A DNA stretch of 60,824 bases, the filler included, from Desulfonatronovibrionaceae bacterium (GTDB lineage: Bacteria; Desulfobacterota; Desulfovibrionia; Desulfovibrionales; Desulfonatronovibrionaceae): NCBI GenBank assembly GCA_046539845.1. It is 2 parts of 2 records of this genome, joined end to end, with 100 filler letters (N's around TTAATTAATTAA, not from the genome) between each part and the next. Parts side by side here need not be neighbours in the genome. Positions count along the whole stretch, not along the records: positions 1 to 30,687 come from JBKHGE010000026.1; 1 more part is not named here. The stretch is one strand, 5' to 3'. Below are positions 16,476 through 31,526 of this stretch, piece by piece. Position 1 is the first letter of the stretch; every line of letters begins with the position of its first letter. The notes beneath the pieces were generated by a model. That model ran no database searches. It saw only the letters and a list, made by a program, of their open reading frames with translations, and was not told the DNA's origin. The position numbers and the translations under genes were made by a program.

Positions 16476-16619
16476 TTTTTTTAGCGCGGGGAACCAAACC
16501 GCCAGAGGGAACTACGCTAAGCAGCCTAATGCAGGACCATCAATGCAGGCTAATCACCGGGGTCGGCCGGACAAAAAAATATCCTTACCGGGGAGGACTG
16601 TATTTTTTGCAAAAAATAC

Positions 16620-16649
16620 TTGACAAGCGGACAAAAGCTTACTTATAAG
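16620..16649 (+). promoter_or_regulatory. sigma70 promoter of the aromatic supraoperon
   Basis: TTGACA (16620-16625), 18-nt spacer, TATAAG (16644-16649); predicted +1 falls at about the leader ATG (16657). Confidence 0.65.
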
Positions 16650-16656
16650 CGGCCTC

Positions 16657-16746
16657 ATGCAAAGCACAACCTTCAACTACAGCTTTTTTTGGTATTTTTA
16701 TTTTACAAAGGCCTGTGGTCCGGAGGTTGTGGTGCACTGTAGCTAA
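16657..16746 (+). CDS. aromatic amino-acid attenuator leader peptide MQSTTFNYSFFWYFYFTKACGPEVVVHCS
   Basis: Translated by hand (too short for the ORF track): 9 aromatic codons within 11 (5 Phe, 3 Tyr, 1 Trp), between the promoter and a terminator upstream of aroA'. Confidence 0.85.
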   Translation: MQSTTFNYSFFWYFYFTKACGPEVVVHCS

Positions 16747-16768
16747 AAGTCAGGTACCATAAAACACC

Positions 16769-16806
16769 AAAGGGCCGCAGGCGGAAGCCGGCGGCCCTTT
16801 TTTATT
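16769..16806 (+). terminator. attenuator terminator upstream of aroA'
   Basis: AAAGGGCCGC-AGGCGGAAGCCG-GCGGCCCTTT followed by TTTATT; its 5' arm can instead pair with 16711-16721. Confidence 0.85.
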
Positions 16807-16863
16807 GTCGTCTTCTTCCGGGCCGCGGGCAAAAAGCCGGGCCGAAACCAAGGAGGACACAAG

Positions 16864-17664
16864 ATGCAACAGGGAAAAGCAATCCGGCTGGAAAGGATCT
16901 TTGACCGCAACACCGGCAGGGCGATCATAGTCCCTTTGGATCATGGCGTGACCATCGGTCCGGTTTACGGGCTGGTGGACCTGAAAAAAACCGTGGACAA
17001 GGTGGCCGAAGGCGGGGCCAACGCAGTGCTCATGCACAAAGGACTCTCCCGCTGCGGCCATCGCGGCCACGGCCAGGACGTGGGGCTGATAGTCCACCTT
17101 TCGGCCAGCACCGCCCTTTCTCCCCATCCGAATACCAAGACCCTGGTGGGCGGAGTTGAGGACGGCATCAAGCTCGGCGCGGATGCAGTCTCCATCCACG
17201 TAAATCTGGGAGACGAAAACGAGCGCAACATGCTCAAGGACGCCGGACAGGTCTGCTCCCGGGCCAGCGACTGGGGAATGCCGGTTCTGGCCATGGTTTA
17301 CGCCCGGGGACCGAAGGTGGAAAACGAATATGACCCCAAAATGGTCGCCCATTGCGCCCGGGTGGGCGAAGAATTGGGTGCAGACGTGGTCAAAGTGGCC
17401 TACTCCGGAGACGCAGAATCCTTTGAACGGGTGGTGGACGCCTGCTGCATCCCGGTGGTCATTGCCGGGGGAGAAAAAATGGACAACAACAGGGATCTCC
17501 TCAAAATGGTCCAGGATTCCATCCAGGCCGGAGGAGCAGGCCTGTCCATCGGCCGGAATATTTTCCAGCACGACGACCCCACTCTTTTGGTCCACGCCCT
17601 GAAAATGATTGTCCACAACGACGCCGAACTCCAGGAGGCCCTGGATATCCTGCAACCCAACTAG
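16864..17664 (+). CDS. 2-amino-3,7-dideoxy-D-threo-hept-6-ulosonate synthase (AroA', class I aldolase family)
   Basis: [31 protein letters not shown] and GRNIFQH motifs; paired with DHQ synthase II. Confidence 0.88.
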
Positions 17665-17676
17665 GACGATTGTAAA

Positions 17677-18651
17677 ATGGACAAAAAAGTATACTTTAGC
17701 GCCGTACCTTTTGACAAAGAGCTGGTCACGATCGCTTTGGAATCCGGAGCAGACGGGGTGATAACCGAGGCCAAGGACGTGGACAAGGTGCGTTCCCTGT
17801 CCCGGGTCGAGGCCCTGGACAAGAGCAAATTCCGTTTTTTGCAGATAAAGTCCAAGGATGACGAAAAGGCAGCGGTCAATGCGGCCAAAAAAGGGGAAAA
17901 AGTTGTCTTGAGGCACGGTGTGGAGATCATTCCGGTGGAAAACATCCTGGCTGAAAGCGGGGATGTGGGCATGGAGGTGGCCACGGCCGAGGAGGCCGCA
18001 ACTGCACTGGGCATTTTGGAAAAAGGTGTGGCCTTTCTTGTGGTCACCGCGGACAATGCCCAGGGCATCAAAAATTGCCTCGCCGCGGCCAAACAGACAG
18101 CCGGAACCCTGGAACTCTCCCGGGCCAAGATCACCGAGATAAGACCGGTCGGGCTAGGCCATCGCGTATGCGTGGACACCATCTCCCTCTTAAATACCGG
18201 ACAGGGGATGCTCGTGGGCAATTCCAGCGGGTTTACCTTTTTGATCAACGCTGAGACTGAATCCAATCCATACGTGGCTCCGCGTCCTTTCCGCATCAAC
18301 GCGGGTGCGGTCCATTCCTACGCTGTTTTGCCGGGGGACAGGACCTGTTACCTGGAGGAGCTCGGCCCGGGCGACGAGGTGCTGATCGCCGGTCCCAAAG
18401 GCGAGACCCGGATCAGCTCTGTAGGCCGGCTCAAAACCGAGGTCAGACCCATGCTTTTGGTCCGTGCGGCCGGGGCAAAGGGCGAGGGCACGGTCATCCT
18501 GCAAAACGCTGAGACCATCCGTCTGGTGGATCCGGACGGAAAACCGGTCAGCGTGGTCGACCTCAAGCCCGGAGACGAGATCTTGTGCCGCTGCGACACA
18601 GCCGGACGCCATTTTGGAATGCGTATCCAGGAAGACATCCGGGAAAAATAG
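17677..18651 (+). CDS. 3-dehydroquinate synthase II (AroB')
   Basis: GHRVCVDT, RPFRINAGAVHSY, LQNAETIRL and GRHFGM motifs. Confidence 0.93.
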   Translation: MDKKVYFSAVPFDKELVTIALESGADGVITEAKDVDKVRSLSRVEALDKSKFRFLQIKSKDDEKAAVNAAKKGEKVVLRHGVEIIPVENILAESGDVGMEVATAEEAATALGILEKGVAFLVVTADNAQGIKNCLAAAKQTAGTLELSRAKITEIRPVGLGHRVCVDTISLLNTGQGMLVGNSSGFTFLINAETESNPYVAPRPFRINAGAVHSYAVLPGDRTCYLEELGPGDEVLIAGPKGETRISSVGRLKTEVRPMLLVRAAGAKGEGTVILQNAETIRLVDPDGKPVSVVDLKPGDEILCRCDTAGRHFGMRIQEDIREK

Positions 18652-18669
18652 CCCCGGACAGGAACTATC

Positions 18670-19758
18670 ATGGACGACACCCGCTTCGATACAGTCAGAA
18701 AAAAAATCAACGCCACCGATGAAAAGATCCTGGAACTCTTGAACTCCAGGGCCAAACTGAGCATGGAGGTGGGGCGGATAAAGGCCGGGTCCGGGACCAA
18801 CGTGTTTAGACCGTTCCGGGAAAAGGACCTCCTGCAGTCGCTTGTTGAAAAAAACCCCGGTCCGCTTCCGGCAGAGCATCTGGTGAACATATATACGGAG
18901 ATACTCTCCTCCTCCCGCCGCCTGCAGAGACCGCAGTCCGTAGCCTATCTGGGTCCGGAAGGCACCTTTTCCTATCTGGCCGGGGTGGAATTCCTGGGCA
19001 AGAGTTCGGAATTCGTGCCCATGAACTCCCTTAGGGACGTATTCGCGGCTGTATCCGAGAACCGCACCCACCTCGGGGTTATCCCCCTGGAAAACTCTTT
19101 ACAGGGCAGCGTGGGGCAGAGCCTGGACCTTTTTTTGAGTTTCGAGCTGACCATCCTGGCCGAGCTGTTCTGCCGCATAAGTCATTCCCTTCTGGGCCGG
19201 TCCTCAGGACTCAAGGAAGTGGAAAGGGTTTACTCCCATCCCCAGGCCCTGCAACAATGCGCGAACTGGCTGCGGTCCAACCTCCCGGAGGCCAAATTGG
19301 TTCCGGTCTCCTCCACAGCCGCAGCCGCACAGGAAGCGGAAAAGGATGAACACGGCGCTGCCATCGGACATTTCAAGCTGGCCAGCCAGAACGACCTGGA
19401 GATCATCCATTCCGGTATAGAGGACCTGCCGGACAACTGGACCAGGTTCCTTATCCTGGGTCGGGAACCGACCGAGGACCAGGGTAACAGGGACAAGACC
19501 TCGATTCTGTTCACCCTCCCGGACAAACCGGGCTCCCTGGTCCGGGCCCTGCAGGTCCTCTCCGGCCGAGGCATAAATATGACCAAGCTGGAGTCCAGGC
19601 CCTTGCCGTTTGAAAAATGGAAATATGTGTTTTTTGCTGACGTGCAGTGTGATCTGACCGCCGGGGAGTACAAGAAGATGCTCGAGGAATTGAACTCCGC
19701 CTGCCATTCCATGCGCGTTCTGGGCAGCTACCCTGAGGGCAAGCAGGTCAGGTTCTGA
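18670..19758 (+). CDS. pheA: chorismate mutase / prephenate dehydratase (P-protein)
   Basis: N-terminal AroQ domain, YLGPEGTFS, PLENS, SHPQALQQC, NWTRF, and ACT domain with TKLESRP. Confidence 0.96.
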   Translation: MDDTRFDTVRKKINATDEKILELLNSRAKLSMEVGRIKAGSGTNVFRPFREKDLLQSLVEKNPGPLPAEHLVNIYTEILSSSRRLQRPQSVAYLGPEGTFSYLAGVEFLGKSSEFVPMNSLRDVFAAVSENRTHLGVIPLENSLQGSVGQSLDLFLSFELTILAELFCRISHSLLGRSSGLKEVERVYSHPQALQQCANWLRSNLPEAKLVPVSSTAAAAQEAEKDEHGAAIGHFKLASQNDLEIIHSGIEDLPDNWTRFLILGREPTEDQGNRDKTSILFTLPDKPGSLVRALQVLSGRGINMTKLESRPLPFEKWKYVFFADVQCDLTAGEYKKMLEELNSACHSMRVLGSYPEGKQVRF

Positions 19759-19760
19759 TT

Positions 19761-21131
19761 ATGGTCAACCAAACTAAGGCCATAACCCTGACCGCGCCTG
19801 GCTCCAAATCGGTATCGCACCGGCTTTTGATCTGCGCCGCTTTGGCTGACCGCACCAGCCGGTTACAAAACCTGCTGGACAGCGAGGACATCCACTGCAC
19901 TGCGGACTGCTTGCGCCAGCTGGGGGCGATTACCTCTGGAAACCCGGGAGACAAAGCAATGCGGGTAACCGGGATAGCCGGCCGGGTGCACAATACAGGG
20001 GAAAGCCCGGTGGAGCTGGATGTGCGCGAATCCGGGACCACCTGCCGCCTTTTGGCCGCTGTTGTTTCCGCCGGGCAGGGCCTCTTTTCTATCCGCGGCA
20101 GGGGCAGGATGCACCAGCGCCCTCTTTACGATCTGGCCCGGGCGGTGGAGAATCAGGGAACCGATTTCAAATGGCTGGAAAAGCACGGCTGCCCTCCGGT
20201 GCATATCCTCGGCCGGGGCTTTAGCGGCGGGGAGATAGAGATCAGCATGGACAAGAGCAGTCAATTTCTGTCCGGCCTGCTCCTTGCCGCTCCAATGGCC
20301 GCCTTGCCGCTCAAAATCCATGTCTGCGGGAGAAAAGCGGTCTCCTGGCCGTACGTGGGCCTTACCCTGCAGGCCATGCACAAATTCGGGGCCCGGGTCG
20401 AGGTGTACAGCCAGGACAGACTGATCGCCGCTTTGGGTGAGACCAGCGGTCTAAAGGAAATAGTCCCCGGCGAAACCAGCTTTTATGTCCGGCCTGGCCC
20501 GTATGTGGCCAATGAAGTGTTTGTCGAAGGCGACTATAGCAGTGCCTCCTATCTCTTGGCCGCAGGCGCTCTCGGGAAATCCGCCGTGGAGGTCAACGGA
20601 CTGGACCCGGATTCTACACAGGGAGACCGGGTCATAGTCGACATTCTGCACAAAATGGGGGCCAATATAAAACGCACAGCCCACGGCTACCTCTCCATGC
20701 CCTCCGAACTGCACGGCACGGATATAGACATGGGGCACTGCCCGGATCTGGTACCCACTGTGGCCGCAGCTGCCTGCTGGGCCTCCGGAGAAACCAGAAT
20801 AACAAACGTCGCTCATCTGCGGCTCAAGGAGAGCGACCGTCTAGCCGCACTGGAGAGCGAACTCAACCGGGCCGGATTCGCGGTCCGGGCCCAGGAAAAC
20901 GGGCTGCTTATAGGAGGCAGGACCGCATCCAGGAAAAAGACCGAATTTCGGACCCACGGCGACCATCGCATGGCCATGTCCCTGTCTCTTTTGGAACTTT
21001 TGGGCTTTCAAGTCGCCCTGGACAACCCCAGTTGCGTGGATAAATCCTATCCCGGATTCTGGGAGGATTTGCAAAGGATCAAAGAAGCCAACGGCCTGCA
21101 GTCTGTAGGTTCGGGAAACAAAACAAGCTAA
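19761..21131 (+). CDS. aroA: 3-phosphoshikimate 1-carboxyvinyltransferase (EPSP synthase)
   Basis: PGSKSVSHR, ESGTTCR, SSQFLS, LRLKESDR, DHRMAM and KSYPGFW motifs. Confidence 0.96.
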   Translation: MVNQTKAITLTAPGSKSVSHRLLICAALADRTSRLQNLLDSEDIHCTADCLRQLGAITSGNPGDKAMRVTGIAGRVHNTGESPVELDVRESGTTCRLLAAVVSAGQGLFSIRGRGRMHQRPLYDLARAVENQGTDFKWLEKHGCPPVHILGRGFSGGEIEISMDKSSQFLSGLLLAAPMAALPLKIHVCGRKAVSWPYVGLTLQAMHKFGARVEVYSQDRLIAALGETSGLKEIVPGETSFYVRPGPYVANEVFVEGDYSSASYLLAAGALGKSAVEVNGLDPDSTQGDRVIVDILHKMGANIKRTAHGYLSMPSELHGTDIDMGHCPDLVPTVAAAACWASGETRITNVAHLRLKESDRLAALESELNRAGFAVRAQENGLLIGGRTASRKKTEFRTHGDHRMAMSLSLLELLGFQVALDNPSCVDKSYPGFWEDLQRIKEANGLQSVGSGNKTS

Positions 21132-21162
21132 AAAGCCAACAACAGTCTAGCGGCAAACCAAT

Positions 21163-21948
21163 ATGGACCAGGAAATAGAAAAAATCGCCCTGATTGGGGG
21201 GCGGGGGCGCATGGGACGCCTGTTCGCCGGCTTGTTTGCTGCGGCCGGCCTGGAGATCAAGACTTTTGACCGGCCCTTGGACAGCCACCGTCTACAAAAG
21301 GAGCTGCCGGATTGCCGGCTGGTGCTTATGTGCACTCCGGTACACGCCCTTCCGGACGCCCTGGCGGATATCGTCCCTGCCCTGGGAGCGCATAACATCC
21401 TGGCCGACATCTCCTCGGTCAAGGTCAAGCCCATGCAGCAGATGCGGGAGGCGTTCTCCGGCCCGATAGTTGGCACACACCCCCTTTTCGGACCCGATCC
21501 GGACGGCCAGACCCCGCTCAGATGCGCCATATGCCCGGACGCCTCGGCCTCTGCAGAGGACACGGCAGCCCTGGAAAAGTCCTTTACTGACGCGGGTATA
21601 ATCCCGTTCAGGAGCGAGGCGCACGAACACGACCGGGCCATGGCCTGTATCCAGGGCCTGAATTTCGTAACCTCTATCTGCTATTTCGCCTCTCTACCCG
21701 GCGATCTGGACCTCTCCAGCTTTGCCACTCCTTCTTTCAACCGCCGCTTCGAGTCGGCGCGCAAGATGCTTACCGAAGACAGCGAATTGTTCACCTCCCT
21801 TTTTGAGGCCAATCCGTACAGCGCGGAGAGTGTGCGCCGCTTCAAGTCCTTTTTGAATCTGGCCGCCGCCGGAGAGCTGAATCTCCTTTCGGACAAGGCC
21901 GCTTGGTGGTGGTGGAACAAGGATATACAGTCGGGAGAAGGACCTTGA
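21163..21948 (+). CDS. tyrA: prephenate/arogenate dehydrogenase with C-terminal WWWW run
   Basis: IGGRGRMG, DISSVK, GTHPLFGP and HDRAMACIQ motifs; ends ...KAAWWWWNKDIQSGEGP. Confidence 0.92.
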   Translation: MDQEIEKIALIGGRGRMGRLFAGLFAAAGLEIKTFDRPLDSHRLQKELPDCRLVLMCTPVHALPDALADIVPALGAHNILADISSVKVKPMQQMREAFSGPIVGTHPLFGPDPDGQTPLRCAICPDASASAEDTAALEKSFTDAGIIPFRSEAHEHDRAMACIQGLNFVTSICYFASLPGDLDLSSFATPSFNRRFESARKMLTEDSELFTSLFEANPYSAESVRRFKSFLNLAAAGELNLLSDKAAWWWWNKDIQSGEGP

Positions 21949-21997
21949 ACGGATAACAGCAAAAATCCGGTTTGCCAGCAAGGCCGCATTCTCCCGA
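21931..21997 (+). promoter_or_regulatory. antiterminator hairpin of the tyrA-trpE attenuator
   Basis: TCGGGAGAA (21931-39) pairs with TTCTCCCGA (21989-97); CCTTG (21943-47) pairs with CAAGG (21979-83); inner AACGGAT pairs with ATCC(G)GTT; mutually exclusive with the terminator. Confidence 0.8.
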
Positions 21998-22011
21998 ATG
22001 CGGCCTTTTTT
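21980..22011 (+). terminator. intrinsic terminator (attenuator) between tyrA and trpE
   Basis: 12-bp stem AAGGCCGCATTC-TCCC-GAATGCGGCCTT running into a T-tract. Confidence 0.9.
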
Positions 22012-22052
22012 ATCGCTGTAACATTGTCAAAAATACCCAAAACGGAGGTCAA

Positions 22053-23465
22053 ATGATCGAATTAAAACATTTTGTCCGCAACATTCCGGCCGATACCCAG
22101 ACCCCGGTCTCCTTGTATCTGAGCTTTATCGGAAACAAGAAAGGGCTCCTTCTGGAGAGCTCGGAAGTGGACGGGAGACTGGGGAGGTTCAGCATGCTGG
22201 CCTGGGACTTCCGCCTCACTCTGACCTGTGAACAGGGGCTTTTGCGAGTGGGCTTAAAAGACGAACGCCTGGCGGAGATCAAAGAAATAGACGGGCTGCC
22301 TTTTGTCCAGGGGGTACGCAGGGCAATGCAAGCCATAAATATCCACCCCCCGGAACAGGGGGCTGCCCCTCCGGCCATAACCCGCTCTTTGTGCGGCTAT
22401 TTCGGCTACACCGCAGCCGGACTGTTTGAGCCAGCCCTAAATGGTGTTCTTCCTCCGGAAGAGGCCGAGGCCCAGCTAGTTTTGCCCGGCCGGATCCTGC
22501 TCTATGACCACCTGCACAAGTCCTGCATCTATCTCACCCTGGACGAGGACGGCTTTTTGCCCCGGGGTGGGTGCTCAGCCGGCGGGAAAAGCACCGGCAC
22601 CGGAGAAGTCCATTCCTACCCGCCCAAAAAGGAGTTCAAAAGCCGGGTCCGGGAGGTAAAAAAGCAGATCGAGGAGGGCGAGGCCATCCAGGTGGTCCTT
22701 TCCACCCGGTTCACCGCCGCCTTCAAAGGCGACCCCTTCCAGGTCTACCGCAGGCTGCGGCAGATAAACCCCTCCCCGTACACCTTTTTCATGGACCTTC
22801 CCGGCCGCTGCCTGTTCGGCTCTTCCCCGGAGCTTCTGGTCAAGGCCGAGGACGGCCAGGCCATGCTCCGGCCCATTGCCGGGACCCGGCCCCGCTCCGA
22901 GGATCCGGAAAAGGACGAGGCCCTGGCCCGGGAATTGGCAGCAGACGAAAAGGAAAAGGCCGAGCATGTCATGCTGGTCGACCTGGGCCGCAACGATCTG
23001 GGCCGCATAGCCGCGCCTGGATCGGTCCGGGTGGACAAGTTCATGCAGATCGAACGCTTCTCGCATGTCATGCACATGACCTCCTATCTGCAGGCAGAGC
23101 TGAAAAAAGGCGTGGACTGCATGGACCTTGTGGCCGCCTCCTTCCCGGCCGGCACTGTCTCCGGGGCACCCAAAATACGGGCCATGGAGATCATCGCCGA
23201 AAAGGAGGACTTAAAGCGCGGCCCCTATGCCGGGTGCATCGGCTGGTTCGGCTTGGACCGGGATACGGTGCAGATGGACACCGGAATAACCATCCGCAGC
23301 CTGTGGGTGGAGGGGGACAAACTGCACTGGCAGGCCGGGGCCGGGATTGTCTTTGACTCCGATCCGGAAGCCGAATTTAGGGAATGCCAGAACAAGGCCG
23401 CGGTCATAAAAGCGGCCCTAATCGACAACGGAGGCACTGATGATTTTGCTCATAGACAATTATGA
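22053..23465 (+). CDS. trpE: anthranilate synthase component I
   Basis: LLESSE, NPSPY, SSPE, RPIAGT, EHVMLVDLGRND and FPAGTVSGAPKIRAM motifs; ATG at 22053 after GGAGG. Confidence 0.96.
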   Translation: MIELKHFVRNIPADTQTPVSLYLSFIGNKKGLLLESSEVDGRLGRFSMLAWDFRLTLTCEQGLLRVGLKDERLAEIKEIDGLPFVQGVRRAMQAINIHPPEQGAAPPAITRSLCGYFGYTAAGLFEPALNGVLPPEEAEAQLVLPGRILLYDHLHKSCIYLTLDEDGFLPRGGCSAGGKSTGTGEVHSYPPKKEFKSRVREVKKQIEEGEAIQVVLSTRFTAAFKGDPFQVYRRLRQINPSPYTFFMDLPGRCLFGSSPELLVKAEDGQAMLRPIAGTRPRSEDPEKDEALARELAADEKEKAEHVMLVDLGRNDLGRIAAPGSVRVDKFMQIERFSHVMHMTSYLQAELKKGVDCMDLVAASFPAGTVSGAPKIRAMEIIAEKEDLKRGPYAGCIGWFGLDRDTVQMDTGITIRSLWVEGDKLHWQAGAGIVFDSDPEAEFRECQNKAAVIKAALIDNGGTDDFAHRQL

Positions 23466-24033
23466 CTCGTTCACTTTCAACCTGGTTCAGGTTCTGCAGG
23501 TCCTAGGCCATCATCCACTTGTACTGCGCAATGACCAGCCGGAGCTGAGCGAAAGGATCACCGACCCGGAATTAAAGGCCCTCATCCTGTCCCCGGGGCC
23601 GGGCCGGCCGGAAAACGCGGGCATGTGCCTGGAGCTCTTAACCTGCCTGCCCGCGCAGATCCCGGTTCTGGGCGTGTGTCTAGGCCATCAGGCCCTGGCC
23701 TGCTACGCCGGCAGTAAGGTGAACACCGGAACCAGGATCATGCACGGCAAGACCTCTGAAGTGATGCACGACGGCAGCCCGCTATTTGCCGGGATCTCCA
23801 GCCCGTTTACCGCCTGTCGGTACCACTCCCTTCTGGCCGAGGATATCCCCGGAATAGAGGTCATCGCCAATACCGAAGAAGGGGAGATTATGGCCCTCAA
23901 ACTCCCGGACCGTCCCTGGTACGGAGTGCAATTCCACCCGGAATCCATCCTCACCCCAGACGGTCCCAGGATCATGGACAACTTCTTTGCCATGCACGGC
24001 ATAAAAAAGAACAAGGAGGAGTTATGCGCATAA
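23440..24033 (+). CDS. trpG: anthranilate synthase component II
   Basis: IDNYDSFTFNL, SPGPG, GVCLGHQ, RYHSL and QFHPES motifs. Confidence 0.96.
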   Translation: MILLIDNYDSFTFNLVQVLQVLGHHPLVLRNDQPELSERITDPELKALILSPGPGRPENAGMCLELLTCLPAQIPVLGVCLGHQALACYAGSKVNTGTRIMHGKTSEVMHDGSPLFAGISSPFTACRYHSLLAEDIPGIEVIANTEEGEIMALKLPDRPWYGVQFHPESILTPDGPRIMDNFFAMHGIKKNKEELCA

Positions 24034-25019
24034 ACGAAGTACTGCAGAAAATCGGCACCGGCACGGACCTGGAATACGCGGAAAGCAAGACCATGTTTGA
24101 ACGCTTCTTTGCCGGGGAACTCACCCCTTCTCAGTGCGGAGCACTCCTTATGGGGCTTACCGGCAAAGGGGAAACCGCGGACGAACTCAAGGCAGCCGTG
24201 GACTCCGCCCTGGACAATGCCCGGCTTATCCGGGGACTGGACGGAGTACGTATCGACACCTGTGGGACCGGTGGGGACGGGCAAAACAGTTTCAATTGCT
24301 CCACGGCAGTGGCCTTTTTTCTGGCCGACATGGGGTATAAGGTAGTCAAGCACGGCAACCGGGCGGTGTCCAGCACCTGCGGCAGTGCGGATATAATCCA
24401 GGCGCTTGATTTGCCCATTTTGAAGGATCCGGACGAGATCAAAGGATCTCTGGCCGCAACCAACTTCGCCTTCATCTTCGCCCCGCACTTCCATCCGGCC
24501 TTTGCCCGGGTCGCTCCTATCCGCCAGGAGTTGGGCATACGGACTATCTTTAATCTCATGGGGCCTTTGCTCAACCCGGCCCGGCCCACCCATCAGGTAC
24601 TGGGGGTACCCAAAGCGGGAATGGCCCCGCTCATGGCCGAAGTCCTGCGCCTAAGCGGATTGAAGGCAGCAGTGGTCCATGGCGCCGGAGGGTTTGACGA
24701 ACTTACTCCCTGCGGGGTGTCTGAAATCCATCTTGTAGATCGGGAAAGGACAAAAAAGCTCGATATTGATCCTGCCACCTTTGGGATGGACATCTGCCGC
24801 CCCAGGGATCTGGGCTGCTCGGACAAACAAACCGCTGTGGCCATGCAAAAGGAGGTTTTGGCCGGGAAAGGCCCAGGAGCGGTGCGGGATATGGTGGCCC
24901 TTAACCTGGGCCTGGCCCTGCATCTTCTAGACTTTGATGCCGGACTGGAAAATTGCATCCGCGAAGCGCGGAAAACCGTGGAAAATGGACTGCAAAATCC
25001 CATCCCCAGTGCGGCATGA
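24024..25019 (+). CDS. trpD: anthranilate phosphoribosyltransferase
   Basis: DTCGTGGDG, KHGNR, RTIFNLMGPLLNP and GFDE motifs. Confidence 0.96.
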   Translation: MRINEVLQKIGTGTDLEYAESKTMFERFFAGELTPSQCGALLMGLTGKGETADELKAAVDSALDNARLIRGLDGVRIDTCGTGGDGQNSFNCSTAVAFFLADMGYKVVKHGNRAVSSTCGSADIIQALDLPILKDPDEIKGSLAATNFAFIFAPHFHPAFARVAPIRQELGIRTIFNLMGPLLNPARPTHQVLGVPKAGMAPLMAEVLRLSGLKAAVVHGAGGFDELTPCGVSEIHLVDRERTKKLDIDPATFGMDICRPRDLGCSDKQTAVAMQKEVLAGKGPGAVRDMVALNLGLALHLLDFDAGLENCIREARKTVENGLQNPIPSAA

Positions 25020-25106
25020 TTTTTTAAAGACTATAAAGAGCATATCTCTGGGGCAGCCCAGACTAGAGAGTGAAGAAAACAAGCCAAAACATACGGAGAC
25101 GAACCG

Positions 25107-25877
25107 ATGCTGGAAATATTCAGGCGGATCAAGCTTGAAGAGATAAAAGACCTGAAGAGGATGAAAAGGCTGGGGTCTTTTCCCGCACCCTTCTGCGGCA
25201 CCCGGCCCGGCCTAAAGCCCAGGCTGAAGGGCGGAGCACCGGCGATAATTGCGGAGATAAAAAAGGCCTCTCCTTCGCACGGAGAGATAAAAACAGACCA
25301 GGACACCGGGGAATTGGCCGCTATTTACGCCCAAAACGGGGCGGAGGCCATTTCGGTCTTGACCGAGGAACACCTTTTCCACGGACATGTCCAGGACCTG
25401 AACCTAGCCGCTCCTCCCGGTCTGCCCTTGCTGCGCAAAGATTTTATCCTCGATCCTGTCCAAATGGAGCATACTGCCTCCACCCCGGCGTCCGCAGTAC
25501 TTTTAATAGTCCGGTTCATAGGCGAGCAGTCCAAACTGTGTGATCTGATCGGGATTGGTCAGGAATTAGGCCTGGAAATGGTTACAGAGGTATTCAGCGC
25601 CCAAGAATTGGACTGTGCCCGCCGGGCCGGGGCAGATATAGTCCAGGTCAACAACAGAAACCTGGACAATCTGGAGGTCGATCTAGACAACTCCCGCAGC
25701 CTGGTCAAAGAGAAAAAGGACCAAGAGATCTGGATAAGCGCCAGCGGCCTTGACACCCGCAAACAATGCCTGGAGATGCACTACCTGGGATTTGACGCCT
25801 GCCTGATCGGTACCTCGGTTATGCTGGCAAGCGACCCCGGGGAGAAACTCAACGAGCTCACCGGAGTCCGGAGATGA
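25107..25877 (+). CDS. trpC: indole-3-glycerol phosphate synthase
   Basis: IAEIKKASPSHG, ISVLTE, LRKDFI and VNNRNL motifs. Confidence 0.95.
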   Translation: MLEIFRRIKLEEIKDLKRMKRLGSFPAPFCGTRPGLKPRLKGGAPAIIAEIKKASPSHGEIKTDQDTGELAAIYAQNGAEAISVLTEEHLFHGHVQDLNLAAPPGLPLLRKDFILDPVQMEHTASTPASAVLLIVRFIGEQSKLCDLIGIGQELGLEMVTEVFSAQELDCARRAGADIVQVNNRNLDNLEVDLDNSRSLVKEKKDQEIWISASGLDTRKQCLEMHYLGFDACLIGTSVMLASDPGEKLNELTGVRR

Positions 25878-26503
25878 AGACCAGGGTCAAGATCTGCGGC
25901 ATTACCCGGGAGCAGGACTTACTTTTTTGTATACAGGCCGGTATCGACTTTGCCGGATTCATCTTTCACCCGGAGAGCAGGCGGTATATCCGGCCAGAAC
26001 AGGTCGGAGCACTCAAAGGGATGGAAGGCGGCCGGGTCGGAGTCTTTGTTCGCCACAGCCTGGAGGAGATAAAAGAGGCGGTTGATGCGGCGCGCCTGGA
26101 CTTCATCCAGCTGCACGGCGCCCAGGATACGGAGTTTTGCCGCGCCCTTCCCGCGGACAAGATAATCAAGGTGTTCTGGCCGGAAAAATATCCCAGCCCA
26201 GAGGAGCTGCAAAAAGACATGCGCCTTTTCGCCCCATTGTGCCGCTATTTGCTCCTTGACGCCGGACAGGGCGGCGGAGGGCACGGACGGAGGATCAAGA
26301 CCCCTTATCCTGAAGAACGCGATCTTTTGGGCAGAACCTTTATCGCCGGCGGCCTTGGCCCGGACAATATAAAACAGGTGTTGAACCAATCCCCTTTTGC
26401 GGTGGATATAAGTTCCGGAGTGGAAAAATCCCCGGGAATAAAGGACCAAACCCTGGTCCTTGAGCTGATAAGAAAGGTAAGGACCAAAAAGGGTTTGGAC
26501 TAG
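25874..26503 (+). CDS. trpF: phosphoribosylanthranilate isomerase
   Basis: [19 protein letters not shown] and VDISSGVE motifs. Confidence 0.95.
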
Positions 26504-26598
26504 ACACGGCAGTCGCCAGTGGCCTGGGTTTAGCTTGGCAACCAGACAGACTGTTTTTAGGTCTTTTTGGTCTTAACAGACAATCAAAAGGAGAAATA

Positions 26599-27765
26599 AT
26601 GATGCGCAAGGGATATTTCGGCAATTACGGCGGGCAGTTCGTGCCTGAGCTGCTCATGCCCCCGCTTTTGGAGCTGGAAGAGGCCATGGACAAACATCTT
26701 TCCAGCCCGGAGTTCACCAAAGATTTGGACATCTTACTCCGGGACTTTGTGGGCAGGCCCACTCCGCTTCGCTTCTGCAGACGGCTCTCTGAAGACCTAG
26801 GGTTTTCGCTGTGGCTCAAGCGCGAGGACTTGGCCCACACCGGGGCGCACAAAATAAACAACACCGTGGGTCAAGCCCTTCTTGCCAGATATATGGGCAA
26901 AAATACCCTCCTGGCTGAAACCGGGGCCGGGCAGCACGGAGTGGCCACGGCAACAGCCGCGGCCATGCTGGGCATGGACTGTTTGGTATATATGGGAGCC
27001 AAGGATATCGAGCGTCAGGCGCACAACGTCCGGCGTATGGAACTGTTGGGCGCACGGGTGGAGCCGGTAAAGACCGGGACTCAGACCCTAAAGGACGCTA
27101 TCAACGGAGCACTCCGGGACTGGATAGCCCGCCAGGAAAAATGCCACTATTGCATGGGCTCTGTGGTCGGCCCGCATCCCTTTCCCCTCCTGGTCCGCGA
27201 GATGCAAAGCGTGATCGGAACAGAAACAAAAAAACAAATTCTCGCCCAGGCCGGGTCAAAACCACACACCGTTATAGCCTGTGTGGGAGGCGGGTCGAAT
27301 GCGGCCGGGATGTTCTCGCCATTTGAGGCGGATACCGACGTACGCCTAATCGGAGTGGAGGCCGCAGGCAAGGGCGGGGAAAAGGATTACCATTCCGCCA
27401 CCTTGAACAAGGGCACTCCGGGTATTCTCCACGGCACATACTCTTTTTTGCTCCAGACGGACCAAGGCCAGATTCTGCCCTCGCATTCTGTGGCCCCGGG
27501 GCTGGATTATCCGGGTGTAGGACCGGAACACGCCTTTTTAAAAACCTCCAGGCGGGCCGAATACTTAAGCGTTACCGATAGCAAGGCCCTTGATGCCTTC
27601 TACCGCCTGACCAGGCAGGAAGGGATTATCCCGGCCCTGGAGAGTTCACACGCCCTGGCCTGCGCCCTGGATCTGCAAGGCAAGATGGACAAAGACGATC
27701 ATGTGGTGGTCAATCTCTCCGGCCGCGGGGACAAGGATCTGGGGATCGTCTTCAGTGACCGATAA
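26599..27765 (+). CDS. trpB: tryptophan synthase beta subunit
   Basis: [43 protein letters not shown] and NLSGRGDKD motifs. Confidence 0.97.
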
Positions 27766-27827
27766 GCCGCGAACCAATTACTTTTCAAAGTTGTCCAACC
27801 CTGAAACCGACAGCAAGGAGATTATGT

Positions 27828-28601
27828 ATGAACGGCCATCAAGCCCTGCACCGGGCCATAAAAAAGGCAAATCAAAAAAAACGGCCCGCGCTCATCCCTT
27901 TCCTTCCGGCCGGATACCCGCAAAAGTCCCGGTTCTGGGATTTGATCCACGAGCTGGACTCCGGCGGCGCAGATATCATAGAGATAGGGGTTCCGTTCTC
28001 CGATCCGGTGGCCGACGGCCCGGTTGTTGAGGAGGCCTCGATTGCCTGCCTGGAGCAGGGCATAGACCTCGAATGGATACTGCAGGGGCTAACTGAGCAG
28101 GCTGAGTATCTGTCCGCACCAGTGGTACTCATGGGCTACAGCAATCCCTTTTACCAATACGGGCTCAAGGGACTGGCCCAAGACGCCGCCCAAGCCGGAG
28201 TTTCCGGATTCATCGTTCCCGACCTTCCCCTGGAGGAACTCCCTGCGTTTGAAGGGCTGCAAAGCAGTGCGGAGACCACGATTATCCCCCTGATCGGACT
28301 GAACACCACCGCCGGGCGGATGAAGGCCTACGCCGAGCTTGACCCGGCCTTTGTGTACACGGTCTCAGTCATGGGCACCACCGGGACAAAAGCCGGAGCG
28401 AGCAGCCGCTTAAAAAGCCAGCTCGCTTTGGCCCGGGAGATCTTTGACTGCCCTCTCGCCCTGGGCTTTGGCATTGAAAACAAAGACCAGATCCGCGATC
28501 TCGGAGTGGAGGTCCAGGCCGTGGTTTTTGGTAGCGCCCTTATCCGCCATATACGCCAGGGAAAATCAGTAAAAGAGTTTATGCGTGCCTGGACTGAATA
28601 A
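27828..28601 (+). CDS. trpA: tryptophan synthase alpha subunit
   Basis: EIGVPFSDPVADGPVV, VPDLP, GTTG and GFGI motifs. Confidence 0.96.
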   Translation: MNGHQALHRAIKKANQKKRPALIPFLPAGYPQKSRFWDLIHELDSGGADIIEIGVPFSDPVADGPVVEEASIACLEQGIDLEWILQGLTEQAEYLSAPVVLMGYSNPFYQYGLKGLAQDAAQAGVSGFIVPDLPLEELPAFEGLQSSAETTIIPLIGLNTTAGRMKAYAELDPAFVYTVSVMGTTGTKAGASSRLKSQLALAREIFDCPLALGFGIENKDQIRDLGVEVQAVVFGSALIRHIRQGKSVKEFMRAWTE

Positions 28602-28612
28602 CGGCTGCATTC

Positions 28613-28640
28613 GCCGGTCCTGCTATGCAGCAGGGCCGGC
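28613..28640 (+). terminator. hairpin after trpA (possible terminator)
   Basis: GCCGGTCCTGCT / AGCAGGGCCGGC stem just after the stop codon; no U-tract. Confidence 0.45.
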
Positions 28641-28686
28641 CCGGCCGATTGCCCGGCAGTCCTTGTCTATCGATACAAGGTAAAAC

Positions 28687-28741
28687 TACAATCTTGTAAA
28701 ATACAACCCTTTCAGCCGCAGCTTTGTTTTACGATTTTGTC
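28687..28741. promoter_or_regulatory. two putative enhancer (NtrC-like) sites upstream of glnA
   Basis: TACAATCTTGTA (28687-98) and TACGATTTTGTC (28730-41). Confidence 0.5.
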
Positions 28742-28817
28742 TAAAATCCCTTTCGCCAGCCGGCATTTTTCTGTCCTGCCTTATTCAAGTAACTGAGATT
28801 ATAAATTAACTAGGGCG

Positions 28818-28833
28818 TGGCATGCAAATTGAA
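28818..28833 (+). promoter_or_regulatory. sigma54-type promoter of glnA
   Basis: TGGCATGCAAATTGAA: canonical -24 TGGCA with a TTGA variant at -12 and correct spacing. Confidence 0.6.
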
Positions 28834-28872
28834 TTACTCTTGGAAAAACAACAAACCTTTCAGGAGGGAAAC

Positions 28873-30219
28873 ATGAGTTTGGACATGGCCTTTAATTGCA
28901 AGAACGCCGACGACGTGATCAAGGCGGTACGGGAATACGAAATCAGTTTTGTTCAGTTCTGGTTCGTGGACGTTTTGGGCACCTTAAAGAGTTTCCAGGT
29001 CACCCCGAATGAGCTCGAGGCCGCATTTGAGGAGGGCATGGGCTTTGACGGTTCATCCATCGAGGGCTTTGCCCGCATCCATGAAAGCGATATGGTTGCC
29101 TTCCCTGATCCAACCTCGTTTCAGGTGGTTTCCTGGAGACCTACTGAAAAGCCGGTGGCCAGGATGTTCTGCGATATAAAGAACCCGGACGGGACCCCGT
29201 ACGAAGGGGACACCCGCTACGCCCTGAAAAGGATGCTCTCCCGGGCCGCGGAAAAGGGATACACGTTTTACACCGGCCCGGAGCTGGAGTTCTTTCTCTT
29301 TGAAAACAATCGCGAGCCCAAGATCCTGGATTACGGCGGATATTTTGATGCACCGCCTCTGGATCTGGCCAACGACATACGCCGGGACATTATTTTCTCC
29401 TTGAACAAGATGGGAATCCAGGTGGAATACAGTCATCATGAGGTGGCTCCCAGCCAGCATGAAATCGATCTCCGCTACCAGGAGGCCCTGAAAATGGCTG
29501 ACACGGCTATCACCTATCGGGTCATAGTCAAGGAGACAGCCCGCAAACACGGCTGCTACGCCACTTTCATGCCCAAGCCCCTGGCCGGGGTGAACGGCAG
29601 CGGCATGCATGTGCACCAGTCCCTTTTCAAAAACGGGAAAAACCTTTTCTATGACGGCAAAGGGGAATTCCACCTGAGCAAGGAAGGCCGGAGCTATATC
29701 GCCGGACTACTCAAACACGCCAAGGAAATAACCGCGCTTTGCAACCAATGGGTAAACTCGTACAAGAGGCTGGTTCCCGGTTACGAGGCCCCGGTTTACG
29801 TGGCCTGGGCCCGGCGCAACCGCTCCTCCCTGGTCCGGGTGCCCATGTACAAACCAGGCAAGGAGGAAGCCACTCGGGTGGAACTGCGCTCCCCGGACCC
29901 GGCCTGCAATATGTATCTGGCCTTTGCCGGCATGCTGGCCGCCGGATTGAAGGGGATTGAGGACGGGTATGAGCTGCCCGATCCCGTGGAAAAGGACATC
30001 TTTGAGATGAATGATGCCGAACGGGCCGATATGGGCATTGAAAACCTCCCCGGAAGCCTGGTGGAGGCCATTGACGAATTGTCCGGCAGCGAAACCATAC
30101 GCGAGGCCCTCGGGGACCATATCTTTAGCCAGTTCATCTCCAACAAGAACATCGAATGGGACGACTACCGGACCCAGATCACTGAATACGAGATAAAGAA
30201 ATACCTGCCGCTTTTGTAG
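28873..30219 (+). CDS. glnA: glutamine synthetase type I
   Basis: FDGSSIEG, GPELEF, HHEVAPSQHE, FMPKP, NGSGMHVHQS and NSYKRLVPGYEAP motifs; ATG at 28873 after AGGAGG. Confidence 0.96.
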   Translation: MSLDMAFNCKNADDVIKAVREYEISFVQFWFVDVLGTLKSFQVTPNELEAAFEEGMGFDGSSIEGFARIHESDMVAFPDPTSFQVVSWRPTEKPVARMFCDIKNPDGTPYEGDTRYALKRMLSRAAEKGYTFYTGPELEFFLFENNREPKILDYGGYFDAPPLDLANDIRRDIIFSLNKMGIQVEYSHHEVAPSQHEIDLRYQEALKMADTAITYRVIVKETARKHGCYATFMPKPLAGVNGSGMHVHQSLFKNGKNLFYDGKGEFHLSKEGRSYIAGLLKHAKEITALCNQWVNSYKRLVPGYEAPVYVAWARRNRSSLVRVPMYKPGKEEATRVELRSPDPACNMYLAFAGMLAAGLKGIEDGYELPDPVEKDIFEMNDAERADMGIENLPGSLVEAIDELSGSETIREALGDHIFSQFISNKNIEWDDYRTQITEYEIKKYLPLL

Positions 30220-30255
30220 GCAAAAGCGGTTATAATTCAATTGACGATTTCCTCC

Positions 30256-30293
30256 CCGCCCGGCACGCAAATCCTGTTTTGAATGCCGGGCGG
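30256..30293 (+). terminator. hairpin after glnA
   Basis: 10-bp stem CCGCCCGGCA / TGCCGGGCGG; weak U-tract. Confidence 0.45.
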
Positions 30294-30687
30294 AATGTAT
30301 ACGGACAGTTAACGCCGAAGCCCATACCCCCCTTGGCTGGACGCGGCCCGGCGGACAGCATACCCGCCCCTAAGCGGCTGTTGTAAGGGCCTTCTCTTGC
30401 CGGCCGTTCCCCAAACCAAGGAACAGTACAAAAAAATTAAAACCCCTTTTTGCTGCTCGGCCGGACATGATCTGCCCAATCCCATCTTTTTCTAACGCTC
30501 GGCCGGTTCCAAAGGCAAAAATTCAAAACTGGACGTTTTTTGCCGTCGTTAGACCTTTGCCCTGCCCAAGGGGGCCGTCCCCTAAAATCTCTTTGCCACC
30601 TTTGCTTTGGCAAGCGAAGGCGAAGCCCAACTTCTGATTCGGGGATAAAAAAGTTACAGTCTTTTGCCTGCTCATTTTTTAACTATA

Positions 30688-30787
30688 NNNNNNNNNNNNN
30701 NNNNNNNNNNNNNNNNNNNNNNNNNNNNNNNTTAATTAATTAANNNNNNNNNNNNNNNNNNNNNNNNNNNNNNNNNNNNNNNNNNNN
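30688..30787. other. artificial contig-joining spacer
   Basis: 44 N + TTAATTAATTAA (stops in all six frames) + 44 N = exactly 100 nt. Confidence 0.97.
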
Positions 30788-30947
30788 AGCGGTAAACATA
30801 AGCACCTAACATTGTTTGATTTATTGTTGGGACACTAGTGACTAGAACTAGTTGCTGATGCGACTGATGCCTTGAATTTGCGCAACCGCCCGAGTTGGTT
30901 CGCTTATTGAAGACAAAGACTAAACCCTATATTATAAGGAGGCAATC

Positions 30948-31526
30948 ATGAAGAGGAAACATTTGATTTTGGGTCTGACAGTACTTCTGGCCGCAGCCAT
31001 GCTGTCCTCGGCAGCGTTGGCCCAGAGGCACGGCCGGGGAATGATGCGCGGGCAGAACTATGCCGATACCCAGTACAGAAGCGGTGACTACGGGCCTTAT
31101 ACCGGACTGAGTGAGGACCAGATTCAGGCCCTGCAAAAGATAAACGAGAAGTACCGTCAGGATCTGGCCGACCTGCAGAATAAGATGCTCCGCAAAAGGA
31201 CGGAGCTGAACAGCCTGCTCGTGCAGGAGAAAGTAGACACATCCAAGGCGACCTCCGTATACAGGGATATCCTGGATATCCGGGCGGATATGTTCGAACT
31301 AGGTCTGAAAAAGCGCTCCGAACTCCAAGACCAGGACCTGAGCCTTCCCTACGGACAGGGCCCGGGTATGATGGGCGGTCCCGGGATGATGCAAGGCCCC
31401 GGATACGGTCCCGGGATGATGCACAGCCCCGGATACGGTCCCGGGATGATGCAAGGCCCCAGATACGGTCCCGGGATGATGCAAGGCCCCGGATACGGTC
31501 CCGGGATGATGCACGGCGGATGGTAA
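30948..31526 (+). CDS. Spy/CpxP/ZraP-like periplasmic protein with GPGMM-repeat tail
   Basis: Signal peptide (AALA), LSEDQ motif followed by a helical hairpin, Met/Gly-rich C-terminus; AAGGAGG RBS. Confidence 0.8.
   Translation: MKRKHLILGLTVLLAAAMLSSAALAQRHGRGMMRGQNYADTQYRSGDYGPYTGLSEDQIQALQKINEKYRQDLADLQNKMLRKRTELNSLLVQEKVDTSKATSVYRDILDIRADMFELGLKKRSELQDQDLSLPYGQGPGMMGGPGMMQGPGYGPGMMHSPGYGPGMMQGPRYGPGMMQGPGYGPGMMHGGW
31377..31517 (+). repeat. 30-bp tandem repeat, about 4.7 copies (GPGMMQGPGY)
   Basis: Unit GGTCCCGGGATGATGCAAGGCCCCGGATAC repeated with few substitutions. Confidence 0.95.

Follow-up and report, generated by a model that had tools for sequence, protein, structure and literature searches.

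A probable tryptophan attenuator with the C-terminal end of TyrA as its leader peptide in the aro-trp operon of a Desulfonatronovibrionaceae bacterium

The tyrA-trpE junction

The window considered here, i.e. the whole stretch of DNA that was analysed (60,824 nt including filler, from genome assembly GCA_046539845.1 of a Desulfonatronovibrionaceae bacterium), carries an aro-trp operon with the gene order aroA'-aroB'-pheA-aroA-tyrA-trpE-G-D-C-F-B-A, as assigned with Pfam. Our subject is the junction between tyrA and trpE. It probably contains a ribosome-mediated tryptophan (Trp) attenuator of the leader-peptide type, which would lie inside the operon and use the C-terminal end of full-length TyrA as its leader. 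The analysis showed sequence elements with mutually exclusive folds that are conserved, keep a constant geometry and are associated with downstream trp genes. The following features lie at the junction:

21163-21948, + strand: tyrA, encoding prephenate dehydrogenase, 261 amino acids (open reading frame, Pfam, structure match)
21904-21915, + strand: run of four TGG codons (W248-W251; hereafter W-run), the proposed sensing codons (sequence)
21916-21948, + strand: tail of ten codons (NKDIQSGEGP) and the TGA stop, of lower model confidence
21931-21948, + strand: 5' arm of the antiterminator, over the last five codons and the stop (folds, RNAduplex)
21950-21969, + strand: spacer hairpin of 5 bp (CGGAU...AUCCG), a possible pause element (folds)
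21979-21997, + strand: 3' partner of the antiterminator, i.e. the 5' arm and loop of the terminator (folds, RNAduplex)
21980-22013, + strand: intrinsic terminator, a 12-bp stem (21980-22007) followed by T6 (fold, terminator scan)
22044-22055, + strand: ribosome-binding site GGAGG (22044-22048) and ATG (22053) of trpE (sequence, Pfam)

TyrA matches PF02153, the nucleotide-binding domain of prephenate dehydrogenase, with 49.1 bits (cut-off 26.5), and the closest solved structure is 2pv7 (E 5e-19 over residues 3-214). The protein ends in SDKAAWWWWNKDIQSGEGP, with the TGA stop codon at 21946-21948. W248-W251 are its only Trp residues; the statement in an earlier note on this DNA that TyrA has four Trp codons, all consecutive at 21904-21915, is correct to the base. 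In a crude six-frame set of 4291 open reading frames (ORFs) of at least 100 amino acids from the whole genome, WWWW occurs in TyrA only and WWW in four ORFs.

The 12-bp terminator, which had been placed about 40 nt before trpE, was recovered with a stem of 12 pairs (7 of them G-C) and a 4-nt loop followed by TTTTTT. This stem is the longest among the 19 terminator-like sites in 16500-31000. Folded alone the hairpin reaches -24.6 kcal/mol (z -4.75), and none of 200 shuffled sequences was as stable. The ATG of trpE is 42 nt past 22011, and 39 nt separate the T-run from the trpE start. An Rfam scan of 21700-22200 returned no family, T-box included, at its gathering score; matches to Trp_leader and PyrR were below threshold and were rejected. 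A look for RNA sequencing runs covering 20800-23200 returned none.

Mutually exclusive folds and a model for their control

The minimum free energy (MFE) structure of 21895-22020 (-42 kcal/mol) pairs 21931-21947 with 21979-21997, in agreement with the complementarity between the tyrA tail and the 5' arm and loop of the terminator that the earlier note had pointed out. This pairing is the proposed antiterminator. RNAduplex places the arm at 21932-21948 with a duplex energy of -19.5 kcal/mol, and in the window the arm begins 16 nt past the end of the W-run. The free RNA 21916-22013 folds as the antiterminator as well (-30.1 kcal/mol).

Translating ribosomes were represented in the folds by masks, for which assumed values of ribosome edges and footprint sizes were used. 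As anticipated, the outcome depends on the arm. With a ribosome stalled on the last Trp codon and RNA made up to 21997, the arm is free and the antiterminator forms (-25.9 kcal/mol). With a ribosome at the stop codon (RNA from 21959 or 21962) the arm is covered and the terminator alone forms.

From these folds and the assumed footprints we infer ribosome stalling, a kinetic competition and a response to Trp, as follows. Transcription would start upstream of aroA' and continue through tyrA with ribosomes trailing the polymerase. When charged tRNA-Trp is scarce, a ribosome would stall on the four TGG codons at 21904-21915, its front edge short of 21931-21948. The free arm could then pair with 21979-21997 as soon as this segment has been made, so that no terminator stem forms and the polymerase enters trpEGDCFBA. 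When charged tRNA-Trp is plentiful the ribosome would reach the stop codon and cover the arm; the 21980-22007 hairpin would form ahead of its T-run, and most transcripts would end before trpE.

Conservation across the Desulfovibrionales

In the GTDB family to which the organism belongs, TyrA was matched in 24 of 27 genomes, and 23 of the matches are full-length. All 23 full-length proteins end in WWW or WWWW, and in each case a purine-rich stretch over the stop codon and a strong terminator follow. Downstream of tyrA, trpE is present in 20 of the 20 loci with enough DNA; of the other four, three run out within 200 nt and the fourth is truncated within tyrA.

For the order as a whole, TyrA was matched in 371 of 401 sampled genomes. 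The relatives include Desulfonatronovibrio, Desulfonatronospira, Nitratidesulfovibrio, Oleidesulfovibrio, Halodesulfovibrio, Desulfomicrobium, Desulfovermiculus, Desulfonauticus, Bilophila, Lawsonia and Desulfovibrio piger. The order-wide set comprised 183 loci, 147 without identical copies. Of these, 136 had a W-run and 700 nt or more of downstream sequence and could be used; those left out, 11 in number, lie mostly at contig ends. An attenuator was called if a terminator of -15 kcal/mol or better lay within 60 nt of the stop codon and the duplex between arm and terminator reached -15 kcal/mol or better. The call was positive in 89 of the 105 loci with a trp gene at most 650 nt downstream and in one of the 31 loci without. 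In this single unlinked positive, L058, the arm is offset by 32 nt, and the call seems to be due to chance. A W-run of two to four codons is present in all 105 trp-linked loci, and the downstream gene is trpE in 102 and trpC in three. The embedded layout appears, as far as genome comparison can tell, to be common to most sulfate-reducing Desulfovibrionales.

Two loci deserve separate mention. In a metagenome-assembled genome (MAG) of Desulfovermiculus (L139:2724-4757) the tyrA-embedded attenuator is followed by trpC-trpF-trpB, and trpEGD are not there. In L004/L120, from a relative of the same genus, the tyrA stop is followed after about 225 nt by an N run and a second copy of the terminator, and trpE lies 292 nt downstream; either the assembly is faulty here or the terminator has been duplicated.

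The trp-linked loci without a call are of several kinds. In L054, L195 and L196, tyrA overlaps trpE or lies 2-5 nt from it. The same overlap or 2-5 nt gap is seen in L222, L268, L270 and L275; in all seven there is no room for a terminator, and WWW or WW is kept. Long unrelated tails are found in L055, L056, L092, L106 and L191. The GC-rich loci L061, L091, L096 and L183 have WWWR plus three codons and then hairpins (GGGGGC...GCCCCC) without a T-run before trpE, which may be a non-canonical or rebuilt switch.

Position and covariation of the antiterminator arm

The earlier note had likened the geometry of the junction to attenuation of the trpL type, and the comparison of loci bears this out: the spacing between W-run and arm is constant, and the arm overlaps or abuts the stop codon. 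A strong terminator is present in 69 loci; in 64 of these the distance from the end of the W-run to the start of the arm is 13-18 nt, most often 15-16. The tail 3' of the W-run is 4 to 12 codons long in the same 69 loci, and the start of the arm ranges from -23 to +7 nt relative to the first base of the stop codon. Because the offset stays constant despite the varying tail and stop, the arm is placed with respect to the Trp codons and not to the end of the protein. This is exactly the placement that a ribosome-stalling model requires.

The sequences of arm and terminator differ by lineage, for example GGGAGAAGG and CCGCATTCTCCC in the window and GGGGAGGAGTGCG and CGCGCTCCCTCCCC in Nitratidesulfovibrio, with complementarity kept. 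In an alignment of these regions (A3) arm and partner are out of register between lineages, and the antiterminator was therefore judged without alignment, by comparing cognate with non-cognate duplexes. The mean duplex energy is -23.0 kcal/mol for cognate pairs against -18.2 kcal/mol for non-cognate ones, and none of 5000 permutations was as good. Compared with shuffled arms, 50 of 65 cognate duplexes have z < -2. The consensus helix of the terminator shows compensatory changes in 10 of its 12 pairs among 72 relatives. The base of the stem (GCCGC...GCGGC, columns 107-111 and 135-139 of A3) is near-invariant across the order; the inner stem and loop are variable and covary with the tail arm.

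Free-standing leaders where trpE has left tyrA

In five genomes of two genera, that of D. piger and an uncultured Bilophila sp. MAG, a free-standing WWW leader precedes trpE. In genomes of the D. piger genus no trp genes follow tyrA and trpE is located elsewhere; six unlinked tyrA loci of this genus that were read downstream are followed by unrelated ORFs, one of them flhB-like by inspection. The four genomes with a full-length trpE locus have a TTGACA-like hexamer and an ORF of 26-29 codons ahead of trpE. The peptides encoded in the D. piger genus are MHAFPTTFFADSFMGWWWRIDMRGGDVRA, MSCTFSNICFRTFWWRASQCTGDVQA, MTRLSHTILFSLQGWWWRKQLRGGDVRA and MNVFSNTISNSFKGWWWRIQLRGGDVRA, and each of these four leaders is followed by a G-rich arm and a terminator. 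The leader of the uncultured Bilophila sp. reads MRFVASSSLSLFAGCAAWRGWRRAFREEGV. Free-standing and embedded forms agree in geometry, the former having an arm offset of 11-16 nt and 9-11 codons past the last Trp. A short-ORF leader with its own start was found only where trpE is unlinked.

A covariance model built solely from 72 tyrA-embedded copies matches the free-standing leaders over their full length (56.8, 51.6, 51.4, 42.0 and 30.8 bits). Embedded copies of the short-tail type score 36-45 bits, and the ends of unlinked tyrA genes 22 bits at most. In the genome from which the window is taken, the model scores 69.7 bits at 21904-22013. A second match in this genome (26 bits, G000:C11:52979-53087, corresponding to L199 1501-1609) consists of the groEL GGMGGMGGMGGMY tail, a GGM repeat, and a terminator, and was rejected as a false positive.

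Since a model derived from embedded copies alone finds the free-standing leaders, we regard both as one RNA module in two states, the state tracking whether trpE stands behind tyrA. As far as sequence comparison goes, this is the strongest argument for reading the tail of TyrA as a leader peptide. The comparative evidence supports the proposal that there is no separate trpL and that the ribosome finishing TyrA would read the Trp codons and gate trpEGDCFBA.

The W-run as part of TyrA and alternative explanations

Several observations weigh against an embedded attenuator. WWW is kept in 31 of 31 TyrA without a downstream trp gene. The co-occurrence with linked trp genes alone, which the earlier note had proposed to look for, holds for arm and terminator (89 of 105 against one of 31) but not for the W-run; equal conservation of the W-run in unlinked TyrA, which that note had named as an outcome that would refute its reading, is what is seen. 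In the unlinked loci WWW is followed by a short or unrelated tail, with both arm and terminator lost. The 31 include three genomes of 97-100% completeness (G243, G199 and G280; loci L089, L086 and L100) that gave no trpE match with the TrpE of the window as query. With a TyrA that nevertheless ends in WWW, these three may be Trp auxotrophs in which the W-run has been retained.

The AlphaFold model of TyrA (mean predicted local distance difference test score, pLDDT, of 96) places W248-251 within the last helix, 239-257. The pLDDT falls from 94 (residues 241-250) through 75 (residues 251-260) to 55 (residue 261). In more remotely related TyrA representatives (36-44% identity) the aligned positions read x-W-[Y/F], and the protein stops 0-10 residues further on. 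TyrA from beyond the order, found in a phylum-level search, is only 28-35% identical, with a C-terminus that cannot be aligned and no trp gene downstream. A metagenome scan with the x-W-[Y/F] group as query returned mostly WWW proteins of the Desulfovibrionales type; four x-W-F loci from metagenomes (L228, L229, L231 and L238) have no downstream trp gene. In five genomes (G139, G379, G392, G345 and G360) open frames of 743-789 amino acids span the tyrA match; tyrA may there share its frame with an adjacent gene, perhaps as a fusion.

Because all 31 unlinked TyrA keep WWW, distant TyrA have x-W-[Y/F] and the model shows a helix, the W-run is at least partly a protein feature, and alone it is no proof of regulation. 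The distant x-W-[Y/F] and the confident helix indicate that the middle Trp of the run is ancestral, with a probable structural role. The run of three or four Trp is a derived character of the Desulfovibrionales group and is kept even without the switch, and the tail 3' of it is the portion free to encode the RNA arm. We therefore see the W-run as in part a protein feature that was taken over for sensing. A structural W-run leaves unexplained the arm, its spacing, its covariation and the free-standing homologues.

The folds and the comparison of genomes contribute further points on the negative side. The whole-region fold of 21895-22020 is not unusual (z -1.65; 12 of 200 shuffles as stable). 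On 21926-22013 the terminator-containing MFE structure (-28.7 kcal/mol) is slightly more stable than the best antiterminator (-26.5 kcal/mol). The two being nearly equal, read-through must rest on kinetics. Near-isoenergetic folds that are decided kinetically are as expected of an attenuator, and thermodynamics alone gives no prediction of read-through. In the window folds no pairing like a 1:2 pause or anti-antiterminator hairpin with the sensing codons stands out; with no counterpart of this E. coli hairpin seen, the default in the absence of translation would be read-through. RF00513 (Trp_leader) scores only 19.2 and 20.6 bits at 21898/21902-22013, and its gathering score is 41. Because the genomes are related to one another, the independent events are fewer than the counts suggest. 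Finally, 16 of the 105 trp-linked loci have no attenuator call, so trp genes can do without it; given these exceptions, the switch must have been lost or rebuilt several times.

The alternative that fares best is a plain leaky terminator within the operon, whose sole effect would be to fix how much trp transcript is made relative to aro or to close the aro unit; the W-run would then be structural and the complementarity incidental. It would accommodate the WWW of unlinked TyrA within a confident helix, the W-[Y/F] of outgroup TyrA at the position of the W-run and the marginally more stable terminator-containing fold. However, it would not lead one to expect an arm 13-18 nt from the W-run in 64 of 69 loci with varying stops and tails, cognate pairs of arm and terminator that outperform non-cognate ones in every permutation, the same module as a free-standing WWW leader before an unlinked trpE, or the loss of arm and terminator in 30 of the 31 loci without a downstream trp gene. 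We consider it improbable.

Less probable still, and in our view hardly to be expected, is a real attenuator that senses Trp by other means, either through a mini-ORF inside the tyrA frame or through a factor acting in trans, for instance uncharged tRNA or a protein like TRAP. The free-standing form found elsewhere shows that a short ORF suffices, and there is an in-frame TTG at 21853. This candidate start was nevertheless rejected, as no purine-rich Shine-Dalgarno sequence lies upstream; the stretch preceding the W-run consists of residues conserved in TyrA, none of them a conserved Met, and no conserved internal start was seen for the separately initiated mini-ORF that the earlier note had allowed for. 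Moreover, ribosomes translating tyrA cross the Trp codons anyway, and neither a T-box nor another known RNA family reached threshold. That the trp genes depend mainly on a promoter of their own, downstream of or overlapping a terminator that merely insulates two units, is very unlikely, because, although in some relatives as much as 300-500 nt lies between the tyrA stop and trpE and could house a promoter, there are just 39 nt from T-run to trpE in the window, the consensus scan of the window showed no promoter-like site on the + strand from the terminator to trpE (the separate promoter past 22011 that had also been considered), and the conserved antiterminator pairing would be left unexplained.

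An attenuator that reads the end of TyrA thus remains the preferred explanation, and a bolder version of it can be put forward tentatively, with a good deal more doubt than belief. In this version one run of codons would play three roles: it would form part of the last helix of TyrA, derived from an older W-[Y/F]; it would sense Trp; and it would act as a brake on the completion of TyrA. The module would also move between the embedded state and a free-standing trpL with its own promoter. Because every TyrA molecule needs these Trp residues, Trp starvation would hold back the completion of TyrA, and it would steer chorismate from tyrosine towards tryptophan. If this were true, the ends of ordinary genes could give rise to leader peptides or conceal them, and a search confined to short intergenic ORFs would miss them.

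The aro-trp operon and its first leader

The remaining features of the operon are listed below.

16620-16650, + strand: promoter-like TTGACA...TTATAA ahead of the first leader ORF (read from the sequence)
16657-16746, + strand: first-tier leader ORF MQSTTFNYSFFWYFYFTKACGPEVVVHCS, 29 codons, rich in Phe, Tyr and Trp codons, heading the aro-trp operon
16770-16804, + strand: first-tier terminator, hairpin and T-run, 60 nt ahead of aroA' (fold)
16864-21131, + strand: aroA' (DeoC-type aldolase), aroB' (3-dehydroquinate synthase II), pheA (chorismate mutase-prephenate dehydratase) and aroA (5-enolpyruvylshikimate-3-phosphate synthase) (Pfam)
22053-28601, + strand: trpE, trpG, trpD, trpC, trpF, trpB and trpA (Pfam)

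The TTGACA/TTATAA pair at 16620-16650 is absent from the output of the consensus promoter scan. The first-tier terminator folds at -26.5 kcal/mol (z -4.95), and none of 200 shuffles was as stable. A comparable aromatic-rich leader lies 5' of aroA' in four of the five relatives examined, D. piger included. The fifth, of the Nitratidesulfovibrio type, has a terminator about 260 nt upstream of aroA', and its leader would lie beyond the 330 nt that were read. From its sequence, 16620-16804 looks like a first-tier aromatic attenuator for the entire operon. Together the two putative attenuators would provide two-tier control, with aromatic supply governing the whole operon and Trp supply the trp half.

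In the D. vulgaris aro-trp supraoperon described by Song et al. 2005 (PMC1173090) an attenuator is marked ahead of the cluster, and it resembles in position the aromatic leader at 16657-16746. The portion of that paper available to us mentions neither an attenuator between tyrA and the trp operon nor the Trp codons of tyrA.

Comparison with known systems

The tyrA-embedded element resembles the trpL system of Escherichia coli (RF00513, Trp_leader) in its tandem Trp codons, in its mutually exclusive antiterminator and terminator, in a stop codon at or near the arm and in the trpE gene that follows. In E. coli about 15 nt lie between the sensing codons and the antiterminator's 5' arm downstream of them, and the distance here is similar. 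There are also differences. The sensor here is the end of a 261-aa enzyme and not a separate short ORF with its own start. E. coli trpL sits behind a promoter, whereas the tyrA-embedded attenuator sits inside an operon, and no equivalent of the E. coli 1:2 hairpin stood out in its folds. By score (19-21 bits against 41) the embedded element is not a member of RF00513.

The free-standing leaders of the D. piger genus and the Bilophila sp. MAG share with the embedded form the RNA family (31-57 bits), the WWW(R)...GG... tail peptide, the arm offset and the type of terminator. Unlike the embedded form they have their own start codon, a TTGACA-like hexamer upstream and only 26-30 codons, and they are detached from tyrA. 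In position the embedded attenuator is also like the aro-trp supraoperon of Bacillus subtilis, where an internal attenuator before trpE gates read-through from the upstream promoter in response to Trp. The mechanism is unlike, as the B. subtilis sensor is the TRAP protein bound to (G/U)AG repeats and not a translating ribosome.

Leader-peptide attenuation is pictured in textbooks with a tiny dedicated ORF. Here the sensing peptide would be the tail of a working enzyme, so that protein structure, the codons read for Trp and an arm of the RNA switch would all be written in a single stretch of DNA. This class would escape any attenuator search or annotation pipeline limited to short intergenic ORFs. 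For the aro-trp supraoperon of the Desulfovibrionales a regulatory logic emerges in which an aromatic-rich leader would serve the whole operon and a Trp-only switch the trp half. With both the embedded and the free-standing form in a single order, the Desulfovibrionales provide a natural experiment on the origin of leader peptides. Because the embedded form occurs in Nitratidesulfovibrio (L123-L126), the genus of the tractable model formerly called Desulfovibrio vulgaris, the proposal is directly testable.

No description of a tyrA-embedded Trp attenuator was found in the full-text literature searched, and one may exist in papers beyond that literature. None is given in the parts of PMC10102598 and PMC5343134 that were available, and none of the relevant terms is present in PMC4045070. 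The closest published parallel, as far as the accessible text of PMC7755916 goes, is the WWW motif of YtgCR in Chlamydia trachomatis. There a WWW motif in a full-length protein senses Trp and alters Rho-independent termination and the expression of trp genes. The two systems differ in direction. According to the same text, stalling in C. trachomatis promotes termination within ytgR and acts indirectly, through lower levels of the repressor, whereas at the end of tyrA stalling would prevent termination directly before the trp genes, by way of the antiterminator.

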